Shown here in pieces: positions 13,434 through 56,835 of a stretch of 64,000 nt of DNA. The translations under genes were made by a program, and so were the position numbers. Location of the stretch: positions 1,105-65,104 of the forward strand of contig WRGR01000039.1 in assembly GCA_009787085.1 (NCBI GenBank). Reading direction: 5' to 3'. The notes under the pieces were generated by a model. That model searched no databases, had not been told where the DNA came from, and saw nothing but the letters and a program-made list of their open reading frames with translations. The first letter of the stretch is position 1. Each line of letters begins with the position of its first letter. The stretch is from Actinomycetes bacterium (lineage in GTDB: Bacteria > Actinomycetota > Coriobacteriia > Coriobacteriales > UBA8131).

Positions 13434-14384
13434 ATGGACTGCCTACGAGCCTTGTCTGAGTATCTAGCTTGGCTTTCTGTGGAGAAAGGCGCAGCCGAGA
13501 AGACTCAGGAAGCTTATCGGCGCGATCTGCGAAGCTACTTGCTTTGGTTGCAGCAGGTCTTTGCGCTTGGCGACCTTGAGGCTATCGATGCAGAGTTGCT
13601 CTCCGCTTACCTGCAGGATTTGGCAGCCTTGGGTTATGCACCGGCCTCACAGGAACGGGCGGCAGCCGCCCTGCGCAGCTTCCACCGCTTCTGTGTGCGT
13701 GAGGGATTGGCCATCCATGACCCCTCTGCCCATGTCCGTCTGCCGAAAAAACCCCGGATCCTGCCCCAGACCTTGAGCATCGGGCAAGTGAACAACCTGC
13801 TTGATCAAAGCTTTCCGAACACTCCCAGCGGCATCAGAGACAAAGCCATCTTAGAGTTGCTTTATGGCTCGGGTCTACGGGTCAGCGAGCTTTGCGGCCA
13901 AGACCGCTCCCAGTTGTTCTTGGATGAGGGGCAGTTGCGGGTGCTGGGCAAGGGTAGCAAGGAACGCCTTGTACCCTGTGGTGGTACGGCGGCGGCCGCA
14001 CTCCAGCAGTACCTGCAGCAAGCGCGCAGCCAGCTGCATTGCGCCCGTCAAAGCCAGCCCGAAGAAGGAGCGGCGGTGTTTTTGAGCCAACGCGGTCGCC
14101 GCCTCAGCCGACAAGCGGTCTTCGACATCGTTCGTCAGTATGGGGAACAGGCCGGGATATCTGGCTTGCACCCACATACGTTGCGCCATTCCTTCGCCAC
14201 CCATCTCTTAGAGGGTGGTGCCGACCTGTTGAGCATCCAGCAGTTGCTCGGCCACGCCTCAGTGGCCACCACCCAAATCTACATCCACGTAGATATGGGC
14301 CACATCCGGGCGGAATACCTAGCCGCCCATCCTCGCGCCGACCGCGTGGCGAACGCCGAGAGCCATAGGAAGGGGGGGCATTGA
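13434..14384 (+). CDS. xerD: Site-specific tyrosine recombinase XerD
   Basis: RDKAILELLYGSGLRVSEL, GKGSKERLVP, HPHTLRHSFATHLL, LLGH, TTQIY. Confidence 0.85.
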   Translation: MDCLRALSEYLAWLSVEKGAAEKTQEAYRRDLRSYLLWLQQVFALGDLEAIDAELLSAYLQDLAALGYAPASQERAAAALRSFHRFCVREGLAIHDPSAHVRLPKKPRILPQTLSIGQVNNLLDQSFPNTPSGIRDKAILELLYGSGLRVSELCGQDRSQLFLDEGQLRVLGKGSKERLVPCGGTAAAALQQYLQQARSQLHCARQSQPEEGAAVFLSQRGRRLSRQAVFDIVRQYGEQAGISGLHPHTLRHSFATHLLEGGADLLSIQQLLGHASVATTQIYIHVDMGHIRAEYLAAHPRADRVANAESHRKGGH

Positions 14385-15355
14385 CGGTCGAACACTATCA
14401 CACTCCAGTTATGGTGGCAGAAGTCAAGAGGCTGTTGGCCTTGGCTCCCGGGGAGGTGTTCTGTGACGCTACGCTGGGTGCTGCCGGGCATAGCTTGGCA
14501 TTGGCATCGGCCTTAGCACCCGATGGGCTGTTGGTTGGCATTGACCAAGATGCCGAGGCACGTACCACCGCTGCCGAGCGACTGCAAGCCGCGTTCCCTG
14601 ATCTTACCTATCGCATCCTAGATGGCAATTTCGCCCAGCTGGATGACTTGCTGCTAAGCGTGGATATTCCCAAGGTGGACAAGTTCCTCTTCGACTTGGG
14701 AGTCTCATCACACCAGTTGGACGCAGCGGCGCGAGGCTTTTCCTATGCTCGGGAAGCGCCGCTGGATATGAGGATGGATCCCAATAACCAAAGCCTCACC
14801 GCCGCCGAGATCGTCAACAGCTCAAGCCAAGCTGAGCTGATCCGGATTCTCCAAGACTTCGGTGAGGAGCGTTTTGCGGTGCGCATTGCCAAACGTATTC
14901 TCCAGCAGCGTCAATGGCAGACATACGTCAACACCACGCAGTTGGCAGAAACAGTTCGCGAGGCCATTCCAGCTGCGGCCAGACGTAGCGGTGGGCATCC
15001 TGCCAAACGCAGCTTTCAGGCTCTGCGCATCGCCGTGAACGGCGAGCTAGATGCCCTGCGCCAAGGGTTAGAGGCTGCCCTGCGCTGGCTTCCGCCCGGT
15101 GGCCGCTTGGCAGTGATCAGCTACCATTCCTTGGAGGACCGCATCGTCAAGCAGTGCTTTGCCACCGCTTGTGGCGACGACGATGTGCCGCCCGAGCTGG
15201 CAGTGGCCAGTCCCAACCAAGCTCGGCAGCCGGCCTTTGAGCTGTTGTGCAAAAAGGCAGTGCTGCCCGGTGGCGAGGAGCTGGCACTGAACTCGCGTTC
15301 AGCGTCGGCCAAGCTGCGGGCGATTGTCAAACGCCGTGAGGCTGTGGAGCTGTAA
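14381..15355 (+). CDS. rsmH: 16S rRNA m4C1402 methyltransferase
   Basis: HTPVM, DATLGAAGHS, DLGVSSHQLD, PLDMRMD, FQALRIAVN, ISYHSLEDR, RSASAKLR. Its TTG overlaps the xerD stop (TTGA). Confidence 0.96.
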   Translation: MTVEHYHTPVMVAEVKRLLALAPGEVFCDATLGAAGHSLALASALAPDGLLVGIDQDAEARTTAAERLQAAFPDLTYRILDGNFAQLDDLLLSVDIPKVDKFLFDLGVSSHQLDAAARGFSYAREAPLDMRMDPNNQSLTAAEIVNSSSQAELIRILQDFGEERFAVRIAKRILQQRQWQTYVNTTQLAETVREAIPAAARRSGGHPAKRSFQALRIAVNGELDALRQGLEAALRWLPPGGRLAVISYHSLEDRIVKQCFATACGDDDVPPELAVASPNQARQPAFELLCKKAVLPGGEELALNSRSASAKLRAIVKRREAVEL

Positions 15356-15552
15356 GATTGCCGTTTACCGTCCACTTGCTCCCCCTCGGCGGCGGCCTGA
15401 ACAAACTGCCTTGATAGGGCAATCTGCGAGGTAGCCGCCTGCTGTGCTCTCTTGCGGCCAGCACAGCTTGCTGTTTAACTGCCTATGTAGTTGCATTTGA
15501 TGGCAGAGCCGCAACATCTGGTATTAACTTGGGATTAGGAATTTGTAAAGCT

Positions 15553-15582
15553 TTGACTTCCAAGGTTGGCATACGCTATAAC
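15553..15582 (+). promoter_or_regulatory. Sigma70-type promoter for mraZ/dcw
   Basis: TTGACT (15553-15558), 18-bp spacer, TATAAC (15577-15582), in an AT-rich intergenic region. Confidence 0.65.
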
Positions 15583-15706
15583 CCTATGGGTCAAAAATGG
15601 TAAGCCACACCAAAATTCTTAAAATTAAAAAATTTCTGCTTCCATTTTAGGGAACTTTAGGGTAATCTTGTAATCCCACGGAAAGCCCTACTGAACGGAG
15701 GTGAAA

Positions 15707-16249
15707 ATGTCGGACAAGGAGCGCTTGGTCGAAGAAGCGCCAGGCGAAGTTGACGCAAACTCAATAGACAGCCCTAACGTTGCTGCGACTGACGGCTTGT
15801 TCGACGAAGAGCACTACTTGGATGGCAACTTTGTAAAGAAGATCGACGGACAAGGCCGCGTTTTGATGCCACCAGAGTTTCGGAAATTCTTTGAGGGCAA
15901 ACCACTCGAGATGGTGCGCTGCTCTTATGACAATTGCCGGTTCTTGAAGTTGATGACCAAACAGAGCTATTTGGCGTGGGAGGAAAGCTTCTTTCAAGAG
16001 GTTGGCGGCTTCAAGCAGTCCGACCCGGCAATGTTTGCCAAGAAGGCGCAGTTGCGCTTGATGAAGGAGCCAGTTGCGGTGGACGGTTTTAACCGTTTGC
16101 GGATTCCGACGGCACTCCGGGATTATCTGGCGTTGAAAGACGATGTGACCTTTATCGGTCTCGGCGACTGTGTGATGGTCATGACCCCCAACAGTGCCGA
16201 TGCACTGCTCAATGGTCCTGAGATCCGAATTGAGGCCTCCGCTGCCTGA
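15707..16249 (+). CDS. mraZ: Divergent MraZ transcriptional regulator
   Basis: Two AbrB/SpoVT-like repeats, IDGQGRVLMPPEFR and VDGFNRLRIPTALRDYLAL...FIGLGD; heads the dcw cluster; acidic N-terminal extension. Confidence 0.8.
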   Translation: MSDKERLVEEAPGEVDANSIDSPNVAATDGLFDEEHYLDGNFVKKIDGQGRVLMPPEFRKFFEGKPLEMVRCSYDNCRFLKLMTKQSYLAWEESFFQEVGGFKQSDPAMFAKKAQLRLMKEPVAVDGFNRLRIPTALRDYLALKDDVTFIGLGDCVMVMTPNSADALLNGPEIRIEASAA

Positions 16250-16357
16250 AGCTGGGCAGTGCGGGTTTAAGGAGGCGGCAGGTTTTTGACGGCGTGAATC
16301 GGCAAGGCCGAGACCGGCAAGTCATGGGGAGGCTATTGCAATAGGTTCTGGGGAGGT

Positions 16358-16523
16358 TTTGACATCTGTATTCTCAGGCACGAGGCCCGCTTCGGGGCTT
16401 CGATGCAAAAAACGGGGAGTCTGGGGAATCGCATCCCAAACACTGTTGAGGCAAAATACCACAAAAACAGCAAGCCTCACCCAGACTCTTCAAAAAAATG
16501 ACTGAGAATCAGCAATGTTCAAG
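16358..16523 (+). ncRNA. Candidate structured RNA of unknown family between mraZ and ftsL
   Basis: Nested complementary helices read by eye: ATTCTCAG/CTGAGAAT, CGAGGCCC/GGGCTTCG around CTTCGG, GGGGAGTCTGGG/CCCAGACTCTTC, TGAGGC/GCCTCA, separated by A6-A7 linkers. Confidence 0.55.
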
Positions 16524-16626
16524 CCGAGGCGGCAGCCAAGGCGGGTGTTGGTGAAGAAATGGCGGTCAGCTGCTGGGGTATGAGTCCAAGGCGAGCAGGG
16601 GCAATCAAGGAAGTTAAGGTGTGGAA

Positions 16627-17085
16627 ATGGCAGAATCAGTACGTCAACTAGGTGATTATTCACAATATCGCCAAGGGGCCGCCCGCCAAGGCGCCGCCCG
16701 CCAATGGCCAGCGCCTTCATATACGCCCGAGCCACAATGGCAAACGCCCCCGAACATCAAGGAGATACCGGGCGGCAAACTGCGGTCGGCGAGTGAGTCC
16801 CAGAGGGTTCCTTTGGCGATCAAGGCTGCCCTTGTTATGGCCTTCATGATTTTGTTAGCTGCCATGATTACGACGGTCGGCATGTGGGACCTCAGCTCCA
16901 AAGCCCGGTACAGTCAAAAAGCGGCCAGTGCTCGGATCTCGGCGCTGAATTCAAGTGGCAGCATTTTGGAGGCTGAATATTCAAAATTAACCAACCCCCA
17001 AAACATCCAGCAGCAGGCAGCTGAAAAACTCGGCATGTCAGAAGACACCGACCCGGAGTACTTGCAGGCCGAGGTTAGCCGATGA
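16627..17085 (+). CDS. ftsL: Cell division protein FtsL-like
   Basis: Cytoplasmic N-terminus, one TM, coiled coil ending LTNPQNIQQQAAEKLGM; directly before ftsI. Confidence 0.75.
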   Translation: MAESVRQLGDYSQYRQGAARQGAARQWPAPSYTPEPQWQTPPNIKEIPGGKLRSASESQRVPLAIKAALVMAFMILLAAMITTVGMWDLSSKARYSQKAASARISALNSSGSILEAEYSKLTNPQNIQQQAAEKLGMSEDTDPEYLQAEVSR

Positions 17086-19115
17086 ATAAGAAAAATACCA
17101 AAGCTCTCAGGCTCGACCGCTATCAGATCATCTTCGGGGTGACGATAGTGGTGGCTTTCTTGCTTCTGATCCGCTTGGTTCAAATACAGATATTTGCTGC
17201 TGACAGCCTAGCGCAAGATGCCCAGAATCAGCGCACGGCCATAGCGAGTTCTAAAGCCAAACGCGGCACCATCTATGACCGTAACGGAGTTGCCCTGGCC
17301 ACCTCGGTAGATAAAGTCTCAATCTATGTCAACAAAAATCAGATGAAAAACCAGCGGGAAACGGCGACTGCTATAGCTCAGGTCTTAGGTGGCAAGGTCG
17401 TTGACTGGGAACAGAAGATCAGCAACAGCGGGGTCAACAGCGACGGTCAAGGGGTTGTCAATGTCTGTTTGTTGCGTTTCGGCAGTGCCGATTTAGAGAA
17501 GAAGTTCGATAATTATCGGCAGCAGTTAAAAAAGCAGTCACAGGATGCCTCAAACTCAGTCAACAACCTCTCTACTAGCCTCTATAACACCTTCGCCATT
17601 AGCAGTGACGGTCATGACTATGTGGTGCAGCGTGCTGAGGCTTTGGACTGCATCAATTTCGATCACGAGTACCAGCGGGAGTATCCTTATAAATCGATCG
17701 GCGCACAGGTTATCGGTCGTGTGGACCCCGAAAGCGGACACGGATTGAGCGGCTTGGAGAAAGAGTACGACAGTATCCTCAGCGGTCAAGACGGGGTGGT
17801 GTACGAGGAGGTCAGTGGCGACGGTGTGCCACTTCCTAACGGTGAGCAGAATGTCAAACAGGTTGGCCGGGACGGGGACAGTATCACTGTATCTCTGGAC
17901 ATCGAGGTGCAACAGAGTGTGGAGAGTCTCTTGGCCAAGTATGGCAAACTCGGAAAAGCCAAAGCTGGCAATGTGGTGTTGATAGATGGCGGCAGCGGCG
18001 AAATATACGCCGCCGCTTCCCTGCCCTTGCTGGACCGGGACAACATCACTGCAGAAGACGTCCAAGCTGGTGCCATCAACCTGCAAGGTATTACGCGTGG
18101 CTATGAGCCGGGGTCAACAATGAAGTCTGTGGCCACTGCTGCCCTTTTAGAAAACGGGGCCGTGAAGCTGAGCAAGCGGATACTCGTTCCGGACAACCGG
18201 TTTATCGACGGCTATCCGGTCGGGGACTGGTATGACCATCCTGCCCAGATGATGGATCTGCGGGCGATACTTGAGCACTCATCCAATGTTGGCATCTCCA
18301 TGCTCTGCGAAAGCCTGAGCAAAGAGCAGCTGTACGACTATTACTGTAAAGCTGGTTTCTATAGTCCTACAGGTGTAGACTATGTAGGTGATGGTCTGAA
18401 AGAGCCTGATGTTTATGATTATGTGCCGCTGGAACAGTGGTCGGCTGTCAGGCTCGCCAATGTCACCTTTGGTCAAGGGTTGTATGTTACCAGTTTGCAA
18501 ATGGCCAGTTTCTACGGGGCGATTGCTAACGATGGGGTTCGCTGTCAACCGCATTTCCTGATCAGCAGCACCTCTGCCAACGCACCGGTTCTTACCAGCT
18601 CCAAACGCATCATGTCTTCGGCCACTGCCAGCACTATGACTGACTTGCTGAAAAGTGTAGTAACGGATGGCACGGGTAAACCAGCCGCTGTGCACGGCTA
18701 CAGTGTAGCCGGCAAAACTGGCACTGCTGAGGTCGCCAACCCCAACGGCGGCGGTTACAGTGGCAACATAATAGGTTCGATGGTCGGCTATTTTGCCAAC
18801 TCGGACTGCAAGCTGGTTTGCATGACATCTATGGATGACCCAGAGATAGTCGGGGTCGCTGTGGCCCCCAAGCCGCTGTTTGCTGCAATCATGGGCTATG
18901 TGGCCAACCGCTATATGGTGGCACCTGACCCCGCAGCAGCTAAGTCCGGGGGCAAGGTTGCCAACGGCGGCGCTACGGGTGGCGCCGCCAGTTCCAGCGC
19001 TACGACGGTTGGCGGCAGCGCTAGCAGCCAAGCTGCTAGCAGTACCGCTGCTGGCAGCACCACTGCCGCCAATGCCACAGCCAGCAGCACCCCGGCAACA
19101 GACAGTGCCGAGTAG
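17082..19115 (+). CDS. ftsI: Class B penicillin-binding protein FtsI
   Basis: RGTIYDRNG, REYP, GLSGLEKEYD, YEPGSTMK (SxxK), SSN, KTGT; Ser/Ala/Thr-rich tail. Confidence 0.93.
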   Translation: MNKKNTKALRLDRYQIIFGVTIVVAFLLLIRLVQIQIFAADSLAQDAQNQRTAIASSKAKRGTIYDRNGVALATSVDKVSIYVNKNQMKNQRETATAIAQVLGGKVVDWEQKISNSGVNSDGQGVVNVCLLRFGSADLEKKFDNYRQQLKKQSQDASNSVNNLSTSLYNTFAISSDGHDYVVQRAEALDCINFDHEYQREYPYKSIGAQVIGRVDPESGHGLSGLEKEYDSILSGQDGVVYEEVSGDGVPLPNGEQNVKQVGRDGDSITVSLDIEVQQSVESLLAKYGKLGKAKAGNVVLIDGGSGEIYAAASLPLLDRDNITAEDVQAGAINLQGITRGYEPGSTMKSVATAALLENGAVKLSKRILVPDNRFIDGYPVGDWYDHPAQMMDLRAILEHSSNVGISMLCESLSKEQLYDYYCKAGFYSPTGVDYVGDGLKEPDVYDYVPLEQWSAVRLANVTFGQGLYVTSLQMASFYGAIANDGVRCQPHFLISSTSANAPVLTSSKRIMSSATASTMTDLLKSVVTDGTGKPAAVHGYSVAGKTGTAEVANPNGGGYSGNIIGSMVGYFANSDCKLVCMTSMDDPEIVGVAVAPKPLFAAIMGYVANRYMVAPDPAAAKSGGKVANGGATGGAASSSATTVGGSASSQAASSTAAGSTTAANATASSTPATDSAE

Positions 19116-29168: not shown

Positions 29169-31691
29169 GTGTCTGATTTCAAACATGTGCACTTTATCGG
29201 CGCGGGCGGATCCGGCATGAGCGGCTTGGTGCTGCTTGCCCATGCCCAAGGGCTGAAGGTTTCGGGTTCTGATCAGAAGCCGACGAAATACTTGGAGGCC
29301 GTGCTGGCAGCTGGTATTCCCGTGAGCTTTGAGCAGCAAGCTGCCAATGTTGCCGACAGCAGCATAGACTTGGTTGTGGTTTCCACCGCTGTGCCCGATG
29401 ACAACCCGGAGCTGGCGGCCGCCCGGCAACGTGGCTTGACCATCTGGAAGCGGGCGCAGATGCTGGATTGGCTGGGACGCGGCAAACGCTGCTTGGCTGT
29501 AGCCGGCACCCATGGCAAGACCACCACCTCCTCGATGCTGGCCTCGACTTTGGACGGCCTGTTCCTTGACCCGAGCTTTCTAATCGGTGGTGTGTTGGCG
29601 GGCTTCGGTGCCACCGCCCGCAGTGGCCGAGGTGAGGACTACGTAATCGAGGCCGACGAATCCGACGAGTCCTTCGTCTACCTGCATCCTAAGCTGGCGA
29701 TCATCACTAACATCGAGTGGGATCACATTGACCACTATGCGTCGTTGCAAGAGGTAGAGGCGGCCTTCAGCCGTTTTATCCAGACCATTGACCCTGACGG
29801 CTGCCTGGTCTGTTGTGCCGATGACCCGGTCTTATTGGCGGTAGCCAGGTCATCCGGACGGAGTTTTGTGACCTATGGCGAAATGGCAGGTGCTGACTAC
29901 CGCTGTCTGCCCGAAGCGGCCTCCTGCTTCACTGTCTGCTATCCGGACGGGCAGAGGCTCAGCGTCAGGATCGACACCTCGCCCGGCATACATAACATGC
30001 TCAATGCCAGCGCTGTACTGGCGGCCTTGGACCTGTTGGGTCTAGATCGCAGCGCCACTGCCGCCGCCTTATCTGGGTTTGCTGGTGCCAAACGGCGTTT
30101 TGAGCTTGTCGGCGAGGTGCGGCAAGTACAGGTAGTCGATGACTATGGGCACCATCCAACAGAGTTCAAGGCCACGTTGGCCGCCGCGCAGAGCTTGGGT
30201 TATCGGCGTGTCCACCTGCTTTTTCAGCCACATCGCTTCACCCGTCTGCAGGGTCTATTCAATGACTTCGTCGAATCCTTCGACCTTGCCGATAGCATCA
30301 GCCTACTTGAGGTCTATCCGGCTGGGGAGCAACCCATCGAGGGCATTGACTCGCATGCTTTGGCCAGTGCTCTTCAAGAACGGCATCCGAAGAAGTTGGT
30401 AGAGGTTTTCCCCGACCCCAGTCAAGCCGTTCGGGCGCTAGCTGAGCTGGCCGGCCCCGACGACCTGGTCTTGACTATGGGGGCAGGGGACATCACCCAG
30501 TTGGCACCAAAGATTGTCGAGGCTTTGGCCAGCCAGGACGGCAGCGACAGCGCTGGCCTGGGTCATCTGGCTGAGGTCGAAAACGATGTCTCCGCGCATG
30601 ATACGAGCGGCCATTTAGCAGTGCGTCAGGAAAATCCCGAGGCGAGCCCGCCTATTGCCAAGGGCGGCGACCTGTCGGCTTCGATATTCGAAGCCTATTG
30701 TGAGCTGGAAGGCAACATCCAAGGGAGCTTGATGCTCAATGAGCCGATGAACCGGCACACCAGCTTTCACATCGGCGGCCCAGTGGCCTTGCTTGTGGAG
30801 TGTGCCTCGATTGGCGATATGAATGAAAGCCTAAGTGTTATCCATAAATACCAACTGCCTTGGACGGTCATCGGCAAGGGCAGCAATCTTTTGGTCGCCG
30901 ATGCGGGTTTCATGGGGGCGGTGCTCATCTTAGGGCGGGAGTTCAAGACATTCCATCTGCCCCATGACCATCCGGGTGAGACCTTGTCGGCCATGGCCAG
31001 CAGCCATGGCCAGCGGCGGCCACCCGCCCCGGATGTTCGTAGCGGCGGCGGTGCCGATGGGTCAAGTGACGGTAAGCTGGTGTGTGGTGCCGGAGTGTTG
31101 CTTGGCAATCTGGTACAAGCGGCCTTCAAATGTGGCTATTCCGGCCTAGAGTTTGCTGTTGGCATTCCTGGCACCCTCGGAGGCGCGGTGTTTATGAATG
31201 CCGGCAGTGCCAACGAATGGATCAGTTCGACGCTCAACGCGGTCACGGTGCTCAGGCCGGGCTGCGGCCTTGTTCGCTACCATGCCTGTGAGCTGCCTTG
31301 GAGTTACCGCTTTAGCGGCCTGCCGCCAGGAGAGGTGGTGGTAGAGGCCGAGCTGTTGGTGCGCAAGGGCAACCTTGAGCATATCCGGGGCAAAATGGAG
31401 GCATTGTTGAGAAAACGCCAGAAGTCCCAGCCCCTTAGCCTCCCCAGTGCCGGCAGCGTATTCAGAAACCCTCCGGACGCTTCGGCCGGTCAGCTTATTG
31501 ACTCTTTAGGAATGAAAGGCTTCGCCATTGGCGATGCCAGCATCTCTGAGATGCATGCCAACTTTATTGTCAACCGTGGTCAGGCCAAGGCTGTTGACGT
31601 GCTGGCGTTGATCCAAGAAGTGCGAAGGCGGGTGAAGGAGAGCTATGGTAAGGAACTCAGCACCGAAATCCGGTTCATCGGCTTCTCCTGA
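29169..31691 (+). CDS. murC: MurC-MurB fusion (L-Ala ligase plus enolpyruvyl reductase)
   Basis: MurC: HFIGAGGSGMS, GTHGKTTT, EADESD, DDYGHHPTE, FQPHRFTR, MGAGDI. MurB: HTSFHIGG, GKGSNLL, GIPGTLGGAVFMNAG, SAGSVFRNP, HANFIVN. One 840-aa frame. Confidence 0.9.
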   Translation: MSDFKHVHFIGAGGSGMSGLVLLAHAQGLKVSGSDQKPTKYLEAVLAAGIPVSFEQQAANVADSSIDLVVVSTAVPDDNPELAAARQRGLTIWKRAQMLDWLGRGKRCLAVAGTHGKTTTSSMLASTLDGLFLDPSFLIGGVLAGFGATARSGRGEDYVIEADESDESFVYLHPKLAIITNIEWDHIDHYASLQEVEAAFSRFIQTIDPDGCLVCCADDPVLLAVARSSGRSFVTYGEMAGADYRCLPEAASCFTVCYPDGQRLSVRIDTSPGIHNMLNASAVLAALDLLGLDRSATAAALSGFAGAKRRFELVGEVRQVQVVDDYGHHPTEFKATLAAAQSLGYRRVHLLFQPHRFTRLQGLFNDFVESFDLADSISLLEVYPAGEQPIEGIDSHALASALQERHPKKLVEVFPDPSQAVRALAELAGPDDLVLTMGAGDITQLAPKIVEALASQDGSDSAGLGHLAEVENDVSAHDTSGHLAVRQENPEASPPIAKGGDLSASIFEAYCELEGNIQGSLMLNEPMNRHTSFHIGGPVALLVECASIGDMNESLSVIHKYQLPWTVIGKGSNLLVADAGFMGAVLILGREFKTFHLPHDHPGETLSAMASSHGQRRPPAPDVRSGGGADGSSDGKLVCGAGVLLGNLVQAAFKCGYSGLEFAVGIPGTLGGAVFMNAGSANEWISSTLNAVTVLRPGCGLVRYHACELPWSYRFSGLPPGEVVVEAELLVRKGNLEHIRGKMEALLRKRQKSQPLSLPSAGSVFRNPPDASAGQLIDSLGMKGFAIGDASISEMHANFIVNRGQAKAVDVLALIQEVRRRVKESYGKELSTEIRFIGFS

Positions 31692-33249
31692 TAAACGCCG
31701 ACGGGCGAGTGGCACAGGCCAGGCCAGTGGCCCGACCGCTGCTGGCTCTGGCCGTCGCCAGAGCCAGCAGCGCGGATCCGCTTCGCCCAGTGGCAGCCGC
31801 CGCCAAGGTTTGGCAGGCGATGCCGGGTGGGTTTCAGGAGCCAATGCCAACAATGTTTTGCCCCGGCAGCGACACCCGAAGAGCGCTGTATCTAGGCTAC
31901 GGTCGGATTCGCCCCCAGCACCGTCATCGGTTTCTGGGCAGCCTTTCTCACAGGGGCGCGGCCATCATCCGGCACCGTTGTCCGGGCAGCGGCCAGCACA
32001 GCGCCAGCCAGCACAGCGGCGTCCAGCACAGCGCCAGCCAGCACAGCGCCAGCCAGCACAGCGGCGTCCAGTGCAGCGGCATCCGGAGTCATTCACCGCA
32101 AGCGTATCGGAGGACTGCCAACGTCGTCAGCGTCCCGAGTATCGGGAGAACAGCAGCCACCATCTTTACTCTGACCAGTTTGAGCACCGCCTGAGAACCC
32201 CCCGAGCTCGGGCGCAGGCTTCGACGCGTGTCTTGACATCCCTTGGCAAACAGGGCAAACAGCAGAATAGTGGTGGCAGTCGATCACCGAGTCGCCGTGG
32301 CGACGAGGTCACAGGGCGGAGCACCCGCCAACGCCAAGAGCGACAAGAGCGCGCTGCCCGCCGCGACACTGCCGGTCGCGAAACGGTAGGCGGTGGTCGT
32401 CTCCACGTCCATTTGGCGGTGAAGATAGCCGCAGTGCTGGCGGTGCTGGCCATCGCCGTCTTCGTGGTTTATATGGCTCCCAGCTTTACCATTACCAACG
32501 TTCAGGTGGAGGGCGCGAATTATTTACAGGCGAGCTACATCAAAGACAAGGTGGCTGGTTCCATAAAAGACAATACCTTGCTGCGCATCGACACAAGCGA
32601 AGTGGCCGCCCGGGTGCTGACAGAGCCTTGGGTGGCTTCGGTTCAGGTCAAACGGCATTTCCCTTCTACCTTGGTGCTGCAGGTCAGCGAACGTCAGCCG
32701 ATAGCGGCGGTGGCGCTTTCCGGTGCTGAGACGAAAAGCAACAAGGTCGTATGGGCGCTTTCCAACGACGGGGTATGGCTGGGCGAGGTGAAAGCCATCG
32801 GCCAACATGTACAAGGTTTGGATCCGGCAAAGCTGATCCAGATCGTGGATGTATCGCCAGTTTTGCAGCCCAGTATCGGTGGCTCAGTGGCAGAGGGCAG
32901 CAGCATCTATGCCATGATGACCAAGACGGCCTCGATGCTGGACTCCAAATTGGGAACAACGGTCGATGCTGGTGTGGCTAACGCCTTGAGGATAATCGAC
33001 GGTTTCAGTGTAGATATGCGCACTCAGGTGACATCGATTTCGGCACCAGATACAGTGCGCACCATGCTCTACCTGAACAACAAGACCATGGTAGCCATAG
33101 GCTCTGCCGATGACGTCACGGCCAAGGAAGCGGCGATCAAAACGATCATCAGAGATCATGGGGCAGATATCAGCTATATCAATGTTCGAGTGCCTGACCG
33201 GGCATCATACCGGCTAACCGATAGTTCACCGGAGGTTTTAGCGGGCTGA
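31645..33249 (+). CDS. ftsQ: Cell division protein FtsQ/DivIB with a long disordered N-terminus
   Basis: Single TM, POTRA-like FTITNVQVEG...PWVASVQVKRHFPSTLVLQVSER, C-terminal YINVRVP. Start position uncertain. Confidence 0.85.
   Translation: MVRNSAPKSGSSASPDKRRRASGTGQASGPTAAGSGRRQSQQRGSASPSGSRRQGLAGDAGWVSGANANNVLPRQRHPKSAVSRLRSDSPPAPSSVSGQPFSQGRGHHPAPLSGQRPAQRQPAQRRPAQRQPAQRQPAQRRPVQRHPESFTASVSEDCQRRQRPEYRENSSHHLYSDQFEHRLRTPRARAQASTRVLTSLGKQGKQQNSGGSRSPSRRGDEVTGRSTRQRQERQERAARRDTAGRETVGGGRLHVHLAVKIAAVLAVLAIAVFVVYMAPSFTITNVQVEGANYLQASYIKDKVAGSIKDNTLLRIDTSEVAARVLTEPWVASVQVKRHFPSTLVLQVSERQPIAAVALSGAETKSNKVVWALSNDGVWLGEVKAIGQHVQGLDPAKLIQIVDVSPVLQPSIGGSVAEGSSIYAMMTKTASMLDSKLGTTVDAGVANALRIIDGFSVDMRTQVTSISAPDTVRTMLYLNNKTMVAIGSADDVTAKEAAIKTIIRDHGADISYINVRVPDRASYRLTDSSPEVLAG
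31993..32082 (+). repeat. 15-bp in-frame tandem repeat x6 (PAQRQ/PAQRR) in ftsQ
   Basis: CCAGCACAGCGCCAG / CCAGCACAGCGGCGT units. Confidence 0.9.
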
Positions 33250-56106: not shown

Positions 56107-56835
56107 ATGGGCCGCGCTCGCCGTGGGGCTACCGATTTGAACGGGGTGCTGTTGGTGGACAAGCCGACTGGCATCACCTCCCACGATGTGGTGGACTGTT
56201 TGCGTCGGGCTTCTGGTGAAGGCCGCATCGGCCATGCCGGCACACTTGACCCAATGGCCACTGGACTGCTGGTGGTCTGTGTGGGGCCAGCCACCAAGCT
56301 GGCAGAGCACCTGACGGCTGCGGATAAAAGCTATCTCGCCCGCATCATCTTCGGCACCTCGACCGCCACCGATGATAGGGAAGGCGAGGTGCTGGAGCAG
56401 GCCACGCCGCCAGCCTGTCTTGCAGATCCCGAGTACGTGCAGTCGATACTGGCCGCTTTCGTCGGCGAGATATCCCAGATGCCGCCACAGTTCTCGGCCA
56501 TCAAGCTGGACGGCGTGCCCGCCTATCGTCTGGCCCGTCAGGGCCGGCAAGCCGAGCTCAAAGCCCGGCAGGTGCGGATATCGAGCCTTGAGTTGTTGGC
56601 TGCTACTGCCGATAGCTGGGATATCAGTGCCGATGTCTCCAAAGGCACCTATATTCGCTCCTTGGCCAGAGATATCGGCCAAGCGGTGGGCTGTCCCGCC
56701 CATCTGGGGGAGCTGCGGCGCTCGGCCGTTGGCCAGTGGCGTGTTTCCCAGGCGCAGCCGCTGGCCGAGCTGGAGGCGGCCGCCCGGGCCGGGAGCCTGA
56801 CGGAGCATTTCTTGGAGCTGGCGGTCGGTCAGTGA
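56107..56835 (+). CDS. truB: tRNA pseudouridine(55) synthase
   Basis: DKPTGITSHDVV, GHAGTLDPMATG, PPQFSAIK, SKGTYIRSLARD. Confidence 0.96.
   Translation: MGRARRGATDLNGVLLVDKPTGITSHDVVDCLRRASGEGRIGHAGTLDPMATGLLVVCVGPATKLAEHLTAADKSYLARIIFGTSTATDDREGEVLEQATPPACLADPEYVQSILAAFVGEISQMPPQFSAIKLDGVPAYRLARQGRQAELKARQVRISSLELLAATADSWDISADVSKGTYIRSLARDIGQAVGCPAHLGELRRSAVGQWRVSQAQPLAELEAAARAGSLTEHFLELAVGQ

Follow-up and report, generated by a model that had tools for sequence, protein, structure and literature searches.

An RNA hairpin that is conserved inside the coding sequence of rsmH persists, outside any reading frame, at the site where this gene normally sits in the dcw cluster (for division and cell wall) of a Coriobacteriales genome. 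The stretch of DNA analysed, referred to below as the window, comprises 64 kb of contig WRGR01000039.1 (positions 1,105 to 65,104); order, family and class denote the taxonomic ranks of the host genome's relatives. The element lies at 16355-16525 on the + strand, in the gap between mraZ and ftsL, and its core is a hairpin that we call P3 (16414-16491). P3 is a conserved RNA structure in the intact rsmH genes of the order and of two families of other orders. Judged by its sequence, the mraZ-ftsL gap is what heavy deletion has left of the ancestral rsmH, a relic whose only part that can still be recognised is essentially P3; base pairing in this relic has been retained beyond neutral expectation, and the copy of the hairpin in the relocated rsmH upstream of mraZ is degraded. 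We consider it probable that the element represents the RNA core of rsmH at its old site, where the reading frame would have decayed and the hairpin would have been kept for a cis role in the dcw operon.

Folding of 16355-16525 on the + strand gave, as the minimum free energy structure, a three-way junction of 50 base pairs, five of them G-U. The closing stem, P1, joins a 5′ arm (16355-16377) to a 3′ arm (16502-16525) through 21 pairs and is longer than the stem noted in an earlier, sequence-only reading of this DNA. It encloses P2 (16378-16406), an 11-bp hairpin with a GCUUCG loop, and P3. In P3, the 12-bp outer stem pairs 16414-16425 with 16480-16491, the 6-bp inner stem pairs 16447-16452 with 16474-16479 and closes a 21-nt A/C-rich apical loop, and 21 unpaired nucleotides on the 5′ side form a one-sided internal loop between the two stems; linkers of six (16407-16412) and seven (16492-16498) adenines lie at the junction. 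Every nested helix listed in the sequence-only reading reappears in this fold, including both P3 stems with the A/C-rich loop, and so do the A6 and A7 linkers. Its side hairpin at 16378-16406 is likewise present, with UUCG as part of a six-nucleotide loop and not of a closed C(UUCG)G tetraloop. The helices meet in a three-way junction, and a central bubble that would separate two long helices is absent. A pseudoknot suggested between CTGTT and AACAG did not hold, being paired in 39.5% of the cells in homologues, with no covariation.

The energy of this fold was -66.3 kcal/mol, compared with -40.1 +/- 3.7 kcal/mol for 200 dinucleotide shuffles (z -7.15), none of which was as good. The complementary strand of 16355-16525 reached z -2.61, in agreement with the preference for the + strand that had been read from the G-U pairs. 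When both strands of the 64 kb were scanned in 2838 windows, each of 171 nt, with regression on composition, the element came first (z -5.13; the next window had z -4.56), and the flanks at 16250-16354 and 16526-16627 gave z values of about 0. When the helices were folded alone, in sub-windows chosen post hoc, z was -3.3 for P3, -4.3 for P2 and -5.1 for P1.

The relationship of P3 to rsmH was detected with a covariance model built from the single sequence and its fold (R1). A search of 150 genomes of the order with R1 returned, besides the element itself, 14 matches at E<=1, and 13 of these lay inside rsmH, on its sense strand and about 380-470 nt into the gene, aligned to P3. Matches of this length (72-80 nt) were considered as tRNAs and ruled out, ARAGORN finding none on 12 loci (L044-L055); Rfam likewise had no match at the hairpin in these 12 relatives' loci.

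Conservation of the structure was then evaluated on genes gathered without reference to it. For 21 rsmH genes of the family, collected via MraZ, RNAalifold independently predicted both P3 helices; 17 pairs were 94.7% paired, 22 cells carried double-sided changes and none of 500 column shuffles reached the covariation score. A broader set of 81 genes took approximately one rsmH per sampled genus from 13 families of the order, the genomes being chosen by protein search and not by structure. Here 88.1% of cells were paired, ten pairs and 106 cells showed double-sided changes, and the score was again reached by 0/500 shuffles; slid controls paired at 28-53%. The Watson-Crick type of a given pair switches within up to five separate families. 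These changes couple synonymous third positions with first codon positions some 24 codons away (for example, the third base of a Pro codon with the first base of an Arg/Trp codon, or the third base of an Asp codon with the first base of an Ile/Val codon), a coupling that RNA pairing alone explains. It is also here that third-position entropy at conserved residues reaches its minimum along rsmH, 0.89 compared with an average of 1.32.

At least 16 of the 18 core pairs are formed in 75 of the 81 genes. Among 40 genomes of other orders of the class, the structure was found in two families, f18 and f22 (10/10 genomes, 16-18 pairs), and was absent from the remaining 30, which form 7-14 pairs. The surroundings of P3 behave differently in intact genes: a P2-like hairpin is 86% paired without covariation, and the closing helix is pairable, also without covariation. 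The rsmH-internal hairpin is previously undescribed and absent from Rfam 15.

A second covariance model, R2, was constructed from 74 intact structured rsmH genes and included no sequence from the window. Within the window R2 matched the relic at 16413-16492 on the + strand (36.9 bits, E 1.9e-9, model positions 1-83, one mispair), the relocated rsmH (51.6 bits, four mispairs, hairpin at 14771-14853) and a third, partial segment at 9.8 bits (E 1.4). By blastn, P3 aligned to nt 396-472 of the rsmH gene at locus L015 with 68.8% identity over 77 nt (E 6e-6); P3 corresponds to rsmH nt ~377-463. The Smith-Waterman score was 35, compared with a shuffled-query maximum of 26.1 +/- 2.0 across all 46 rsmH genes. 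With nhmmer, P3 was matched by an order profile at E 0.004 and by a family profile at E 0.048; a 45-sequence profile spanning several phyla gave E 3.4, which is not significant. Compared with rsmH, P3 has lost 2 nt by deletion and contains a TGA in frame, so that its reading frame is interrupted. P3 at 16414-16491 is non-coding and lies outside the rsmH reading frame, in which the hairpin of intact genes occupies codons ~126-155; it is a derived, free-standing form of that hairpin.

Protein-level searches recovered nothing more from the gap. None of four open reading frames (ORFs) tested between mraZ and ftsL had a Pfam match, in keeping with the view that the gap has no credible ORF; a read-through search of the genome with PF01795 found the real rsmH only and nothing in the gap; and a family protein profile run against the three-frame translation of the gap gave a best E of 0.11. 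A candidate remnant of the rsmH C terminus just before ftsL, seen by eye, was unconfirmed by protein profile. Within P2, the nucleotides CGGGGCTTC (16393-16401) are the same as those of the family consensus for the Arg-Gly-Phe codons that intact rsmH genes have upstream of the hairpin, although this match is too short for significance.

Gene order identifies the site as the one that rsmH occupies elsewhere. The host order is DUF3866 - xerC/D - rsmH - 345-nt gap - mraZ - 371-nt gap with the relic - ftsL - ftsI - mraY - ftsW, whereas relatives with a flank long enough to be read have DUF3866 - xerC/D - gap - mraZ - rsmH - ftsL. A MraZ match is followed directly by rsmH in 23 of 25 family loci, the two exceptions belonging to one genus with another local arrangement, and the host genome alone among the genomes examined has its rsmH relocated. 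The relic matches the ancestral rsmH slot in position and orientation, in addition to its DNA similarity over the 77-nt segment. The sequence-only reading had correctly placed the element in the usual rsmH slot; it had overlooked that rsmH is present upstream of mraZ and that P3 is a relic of this gene.

The two copies of the hairpin in the window differ in what they have kept. Over 151 genomes of the order, R2 scored 133 at 69.7-102.5 bits and nine at 25-46 bits, and the other 19 family genomes with a match scored 78-100 bits; at 51.6 bits, the relocated rsmH falls in the low tail of the order, above those nine genomes. It forms 14 of the 18 consensus pairs. In the 150 other genomes R2 gave only one match outside rsmH, partial and at 24 bits, location within rsmH having been spot-checked for ten matches against rsmH coordinates. 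Mean identity to the family genes is 54% for the relic and 70% for the relocated rsmH, compared with 75% for family genes among themselves, and in the relic paired and unpaired positions are equally diverged. Nevertheless, the relic keeps 16 of 17 pairs, and 16 of the 18 consensus pairs in fixed register. Its helices (12 bp and 6 bp) and single strands (21 nt and 21 nt) match the P3 architecture of coaxial 3+9-bp and 6-bp helices, and at -26.8 kcal/mol it is more stable than the median intact gene (-23.5 kcal/mol).

Three pairs are particularly informative. Pairs 23-98, 26-95 and 56-86 join second codon positions and are of a single Watson-Crick type in 78-80 of the 81 coding genes; in the relic, both sides of each have changed relative to the family consensus and the bases remain paired. 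Neutral decay was simulated with 25-34 differences in 77 nt, from an ancestor that is an approximation. Under these conditions 8.8-10.5 pairs were kept (P 0.00015-0.002 for the number observed), and 0.7-1.4 compensatory pairs were generated, compared with 3-6 in the relic (P 0.0009-0.03).

These comparisons bear directly on a competing account in which the element is a functionless pseudogene relic, that is, a self-complementary gene fragment flanked by helices that arose by chance. The P3 stems were, after all, already present in the ancestral gene, and the element comes from a single genome in which it was noticed for its good folding. This is also a source of ascertainment bias that weighs on our own reading, the homology having first been found by a structure-aware model. 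Several further observations weigh for this account or against our own reading. The expectation that the region would fold better than shuffled controls holds for the 171 nt at 16355-16525; the whole 377-nt gap is no better than its shuffles (z -0.65). P1 and P2 are known from one sequence, and no second genome provides homologues for covariation of P1, P2 or the relic P3: MraZ used as bait returned 0 loci from genome contigs and 0 from metagenome contigs, FtsI returned two metagenome loci that are both canonical mraZ-rsmH-ftsL, and metagenome runs from two termite-gut studies hold identical sequence only. The reading of the whole gap as a pseudogene draws on its position and a single 77-nt segment, rsmH similarity elsewhere in the gap being limited to sub-threshold matches. 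The loop sequences conserved in intact genes have diverged in the relic. The 14/18 pairs of the relocated rsmH equal the top of the range seen in structure-less genes (7-14), so that its degradation is a matter of degree.

Loss of the hairpin elsewhere must be weighed as well. Six of the 81 genes form at most 13 core pairs and have lost the hairpin, without visible consequence. It is degraded or lost in the rsmH of seven genomes from one genus of family f4 (G047, G064, G082, G094, G138, G143 and G148) and in that of G124, G135, G109, G067 and G014; these lineages have R2 scores of 25-46 bits or no match, and no more than 13 of 18 pairs in the genes fetched. Five such genomes (G014, G047, G067, G109 and G124) keep the canonical mraZ-rsmH-ftsI order, which makes hairpin loss unlinked to rearrangement, and in the five hairpin-loss genomes searched there was no stand-alone copy of the hairpin. 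Against neutral decay stand the retention of 16/17 pairs where 8.8-10.5 are expected, the compensatory changes, the survival of the P3 part while the remainder of rsmH became unrecognisable, the strength with which P1 and P2 fold alone, and the first rank of the fold among the scanned windows. On balance, we regard a functionless relic as unlikely.

The favoured explanation, that the RNA core of rsmH has been kept at its old site, would proceed as follows. The working rsmH copy now resides upstream of the promoter region of mraZ; the copy left at the old site would have decayed, its frame broken and most of its sequence gone. The ~80-nt P3 would have survived, maintained by compensatory substitutions, and would have become clamped by P1 and P2, which are seen only here, into a 171-nt junction within the mraZ-ftsL intercistronic RNA. 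We infer that the hairpin acts as a folded RNA in cis on the dcw transcript because the element stayed beside ftsL, because terminator-like sites are absent from the stretch that runs from mraZ through the relic to ftsL, and because the clamped fold appears to be constitutive. Action in cis on the ftsL-ftsI message would in turn explain why the hairpin remained next to ftsL while the coding function moved, and the cis-regulator offered by the sequence-only reading as one of its two possibilities is compatible with these results. A constitutively folded junction suggests a role for the folded state itself and not a sensor of rsmH translation. As a specific mechanism we favour an element that would determine how the ftsL-ftsI portion of the message is processed or how stable it is, with a modulator of termination or of ftsL translation as a close alternative.

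An intrinsic terminator or attenuator was considered and rejected: a consensus scan of 15300-16700 called 0 terminator-like sites where 1.7 were expected, and there is no U run after P1 or P3. The same scan called no + strand promoter-like site in this interval. Pairing of the apical loop with the ribosome-binding site of ftsL was also considered and dropped, as the complementary stretch amounts to only 5 nt seen by eye and is within chance.

The host genome may represent a natural separation of function that followed duplication or relocation, with the protein assigned to the upstream copy, whose hairpin is degrading, and the RNA to the old site, where two new helices would have reinforced the hairpin. 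This would be subfunctionalisation of overlapping coding and non-coding roles. In this order, and in the 10/10 sampled genomes of the two families of other orders, the rsmH frame may thus also carry an RNA element with a function in the operon for cell division. Taken together, we consider these propositions about as likely as not.

The shape of the junction also invites the proposal that a stable RNA is cut from the operon transcript to act in trans or to bind a protein, with P1 as the processing stalk and the two 21-nt A/C-rich strands as binding surfaces. A 21-bp stem enclosing a compact junction end to end, together with exposed A/C-rich loops, would suit such an RNA, and the dcw cluster offers a precedent in UpsM, a small RNA (sRNA) derived from the long 5′ dcw leader of Rhodobacteraceae, with a Rho-independent terminator at its end and cleavage by RNase E (PMC5089854). 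UpsM resembles the element in being a lineage-specific, structured segment of the dcw transcript near mraZ with a proposed regulatory role; UpsM differs in lying upstream of mraZ and having a terminator, whereas the element lies between mraZ and ftsL, is terminator-less and coding-derived, and shares no sequence with it, as judged by the lack of an Rfam match. The hairpin of intact genes, however, is part of an ORF that is translated, a stalk flanking it is unsupported there, its loop sequences differ from those of the relic, no promoter or terminator was called around the element, and retention beside ftsL favours a role tied to position. We therefore think it quite doubtful that the element is a released RNA.

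The stems are at the same time inverted repeats in the DNA, and the element could conceivably function at that level, for example as a site for MraZ or for a XerC/D-like enzyme. A tyrosine recombinase gene lies 2 kb upstream, and the gap contains a 12-bp perfect palindrome, CTATTGCAATAG (16333-16344), located upstream of the fold between two copies of TGGGGAGG that are 24 nt apart. The sequence-only reading had pointed to the palindrome and to both copies, which are indeed there; TGGGGAGG is nevertheless not enriched in the window (4 occurrences, 3.15 expected). A DNA-level role does not account for the strand asymmetry of the fold, for the five G-U pairs of the relic and the excess of G-U over A-C cells (52 vs 23) in intact genes, or for arms separated by 55-125 nt and nested as RNA helices are. 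We judge it very improbable.

The sequence-only reading had itself offered a 6S/Ms1-like sRNA that binds RNA polymerase, and had named a dispersed repeat, of the miniature inverted-repeat transposable element (MITE) or repetitive extragenic palindromic (REP) type, as what the element might otherwise turn out to be. A size of about 170 nt and a long closing stem would be in line with 6S, but the fold is a three-way junction, Rfam 15 returned only noise at 15300-17300 at E<=10, with no match to 6S or Ms1, and the genome has a sub-threshold candidate for 6S on a different contig. This candidate (contig C46 of the host genome, G000, 86031-86206, - strand) is a full-length match to RF00013 with 35.3 bits (gathering score 46.4; E 1.1e-5). 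A dispersed repeat is at odds with the occurrence of the element as a single copy in the 1.83-Mb, 93.6%-complete assembly and with the absence of any DNA match from 60 relatives. Neither a polymerase-binding RNA nor a repeat seems to us at all credible.

Three termite-gut metagenome DNA runs hold the stretch, two of them perhaps being its source, with no variant letters seen, and no RNA run was listed. RsmH used as a query against genome contigs gave 13 loci, all from other phyla. On the whole window, Rfam at gathering scores yielded noise and two tRNAs only. WhiB is absent from the host genome and from the five complete relatives tested, which hints at, but does not prove, a position of the clade outside Actinomycetota; 6C RNA was not found.

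A known RNA associated with this gene is the mraW motif (RF01746), a simple hairpin upstream of the gene. Both it and P3 are candidate cis-regulatory RNAs tied to mraW/rsmH in dcw clusters, but the structure of P3 lies inside the rsmH frame, and RF01746 had no match in 15300-17300 at E<=10 and none genome-wide at E<=1, in accordance with the earlier view that the element is not this motif. The mraW motif is listed for Actinomycetales (PMC2864571).

Conserved RNA structures embedded in bacterial coding regions form a general class, to which P3 is related by its overlap with codons, its covariation between synonymous and non-synonymous positions and the reduced synonymous variation; no specific family was matched. 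In the literature we found no report of an RNA structure inside rsmH, supplementary files being outside this coverage, and we know of no precedent, though we made no search for one, for a coding-embedded structure surviving as a free-standing relic. The element has the attributes of an rsmH pseudogene in its ancestral position and orientation, its 77-nt homology, its frameshift and its stop; it departs from one in that only the RNA-structured part is recognisable and that pairing exceeds neutral expectation. RsmH has been linked to the translation of mRNAs with early stem-loops in Bacillus subtilis, in a recent study that is not about a structure in rsmH itself (PMC13659658).

A strongly covarying RNA structure in rsmH is of interest since this is a near-universal housekeeping gene at the head of the division and cell wall operon. 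It is difficult to demonstrate functional RNAs within coding sequence, where constraints on the codons hide covariation, and the relic supplies the control that is usually missing: with the coding constraint gone, near-invariant pairs show two-sided changes and still pair. Should the hairpin control ftsL-ftsI, cell division in this clade would have a new level of regulation. More generally, what looks like a novel RNA in an unusual gap between genes can be the functional core that a lost gene has left behind.

The xerC/D-like recombinase gene (13434-14384) has a stop that overlaps with the start of the relocated, functional rsmH, which occupies 14381-15355 on the + strand (Pfam PF01795, E 1.6e-102). 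The rsmH product is 53-60% identical to RsmH of the family. MraZ of the host is unusually divergent by comparison, with 24-36% identity to MraZ of the same family, and among 5.8 billion proteins no relative sharing five-residue words was found besides the 180-aa protein itself. Its gene lies at 15707-16249 on the + strand (PF02381, E 1.1e-11) within an ORF that opens at GTG 15701; the likely start is ATG 15707. Downstream of the relic, ftsL (16628-17085, +) starts at ATG 16628 behind AAGGTG in an ORF that opens at GTG 16621, and is identified by a weak DivIC match (Pfam, E 0.0037) and by tblastn matches to ftsL of relatives; ftsI (17082-19115, +), mraY and ftsW follow, each with Pfam support.

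The region upstream of mraZ (15356-15706, +) was read by eye, and its features were uncalled by the consensus scan. A terminator-like hairpin with a T-rich tail is found downstream of the relocated rsmH (15441-15467, tail to 15476), promoter-like hexamers TTGACT (15553-15558) and TATAAC (15577-15582) follow with a spacing of 18 nt, and two direct repeats of TTTAGGGNA, 11 nt apart at about 15646-15665 in the mraZ leader, may be operator boxes for MraZ. In relatives, xerC/D and mraZ are separated by a gap of comparable size.

Within the xerC/D-like gene, upstream of the relocated rsmH start, the 3′ part at 14131-14346 (+) contains 171-nt windows whose folding exceeds what their composition predicts (z -4.35 and -3.78); a long inverted repeat was not found there. 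Another rearrangement of the dcw neighbourhood is seen in one genus, at loci L007 (G011:C41) and L009 (G024:C105): the order in L007 is DUF3866 - mraZ - xerC/D, with no rsmH within 534 nt past xerC/D.

Two inverted repeats elsewhere in the window also accompany strong folding. A perfect 16-bp repeat with a 4-nt loop (31737-31772) lies just past an 840-aa ORF ending at 31691; 171-nt windows near it fold strongly on both strands (z about -4), and it may be a terminator. An imperfect 19-nt repeat with arms 119 nt apart spans 56469-56625, and the 171-nt window from 56521 (+) has the second-best fold of the scan (z -4.56).

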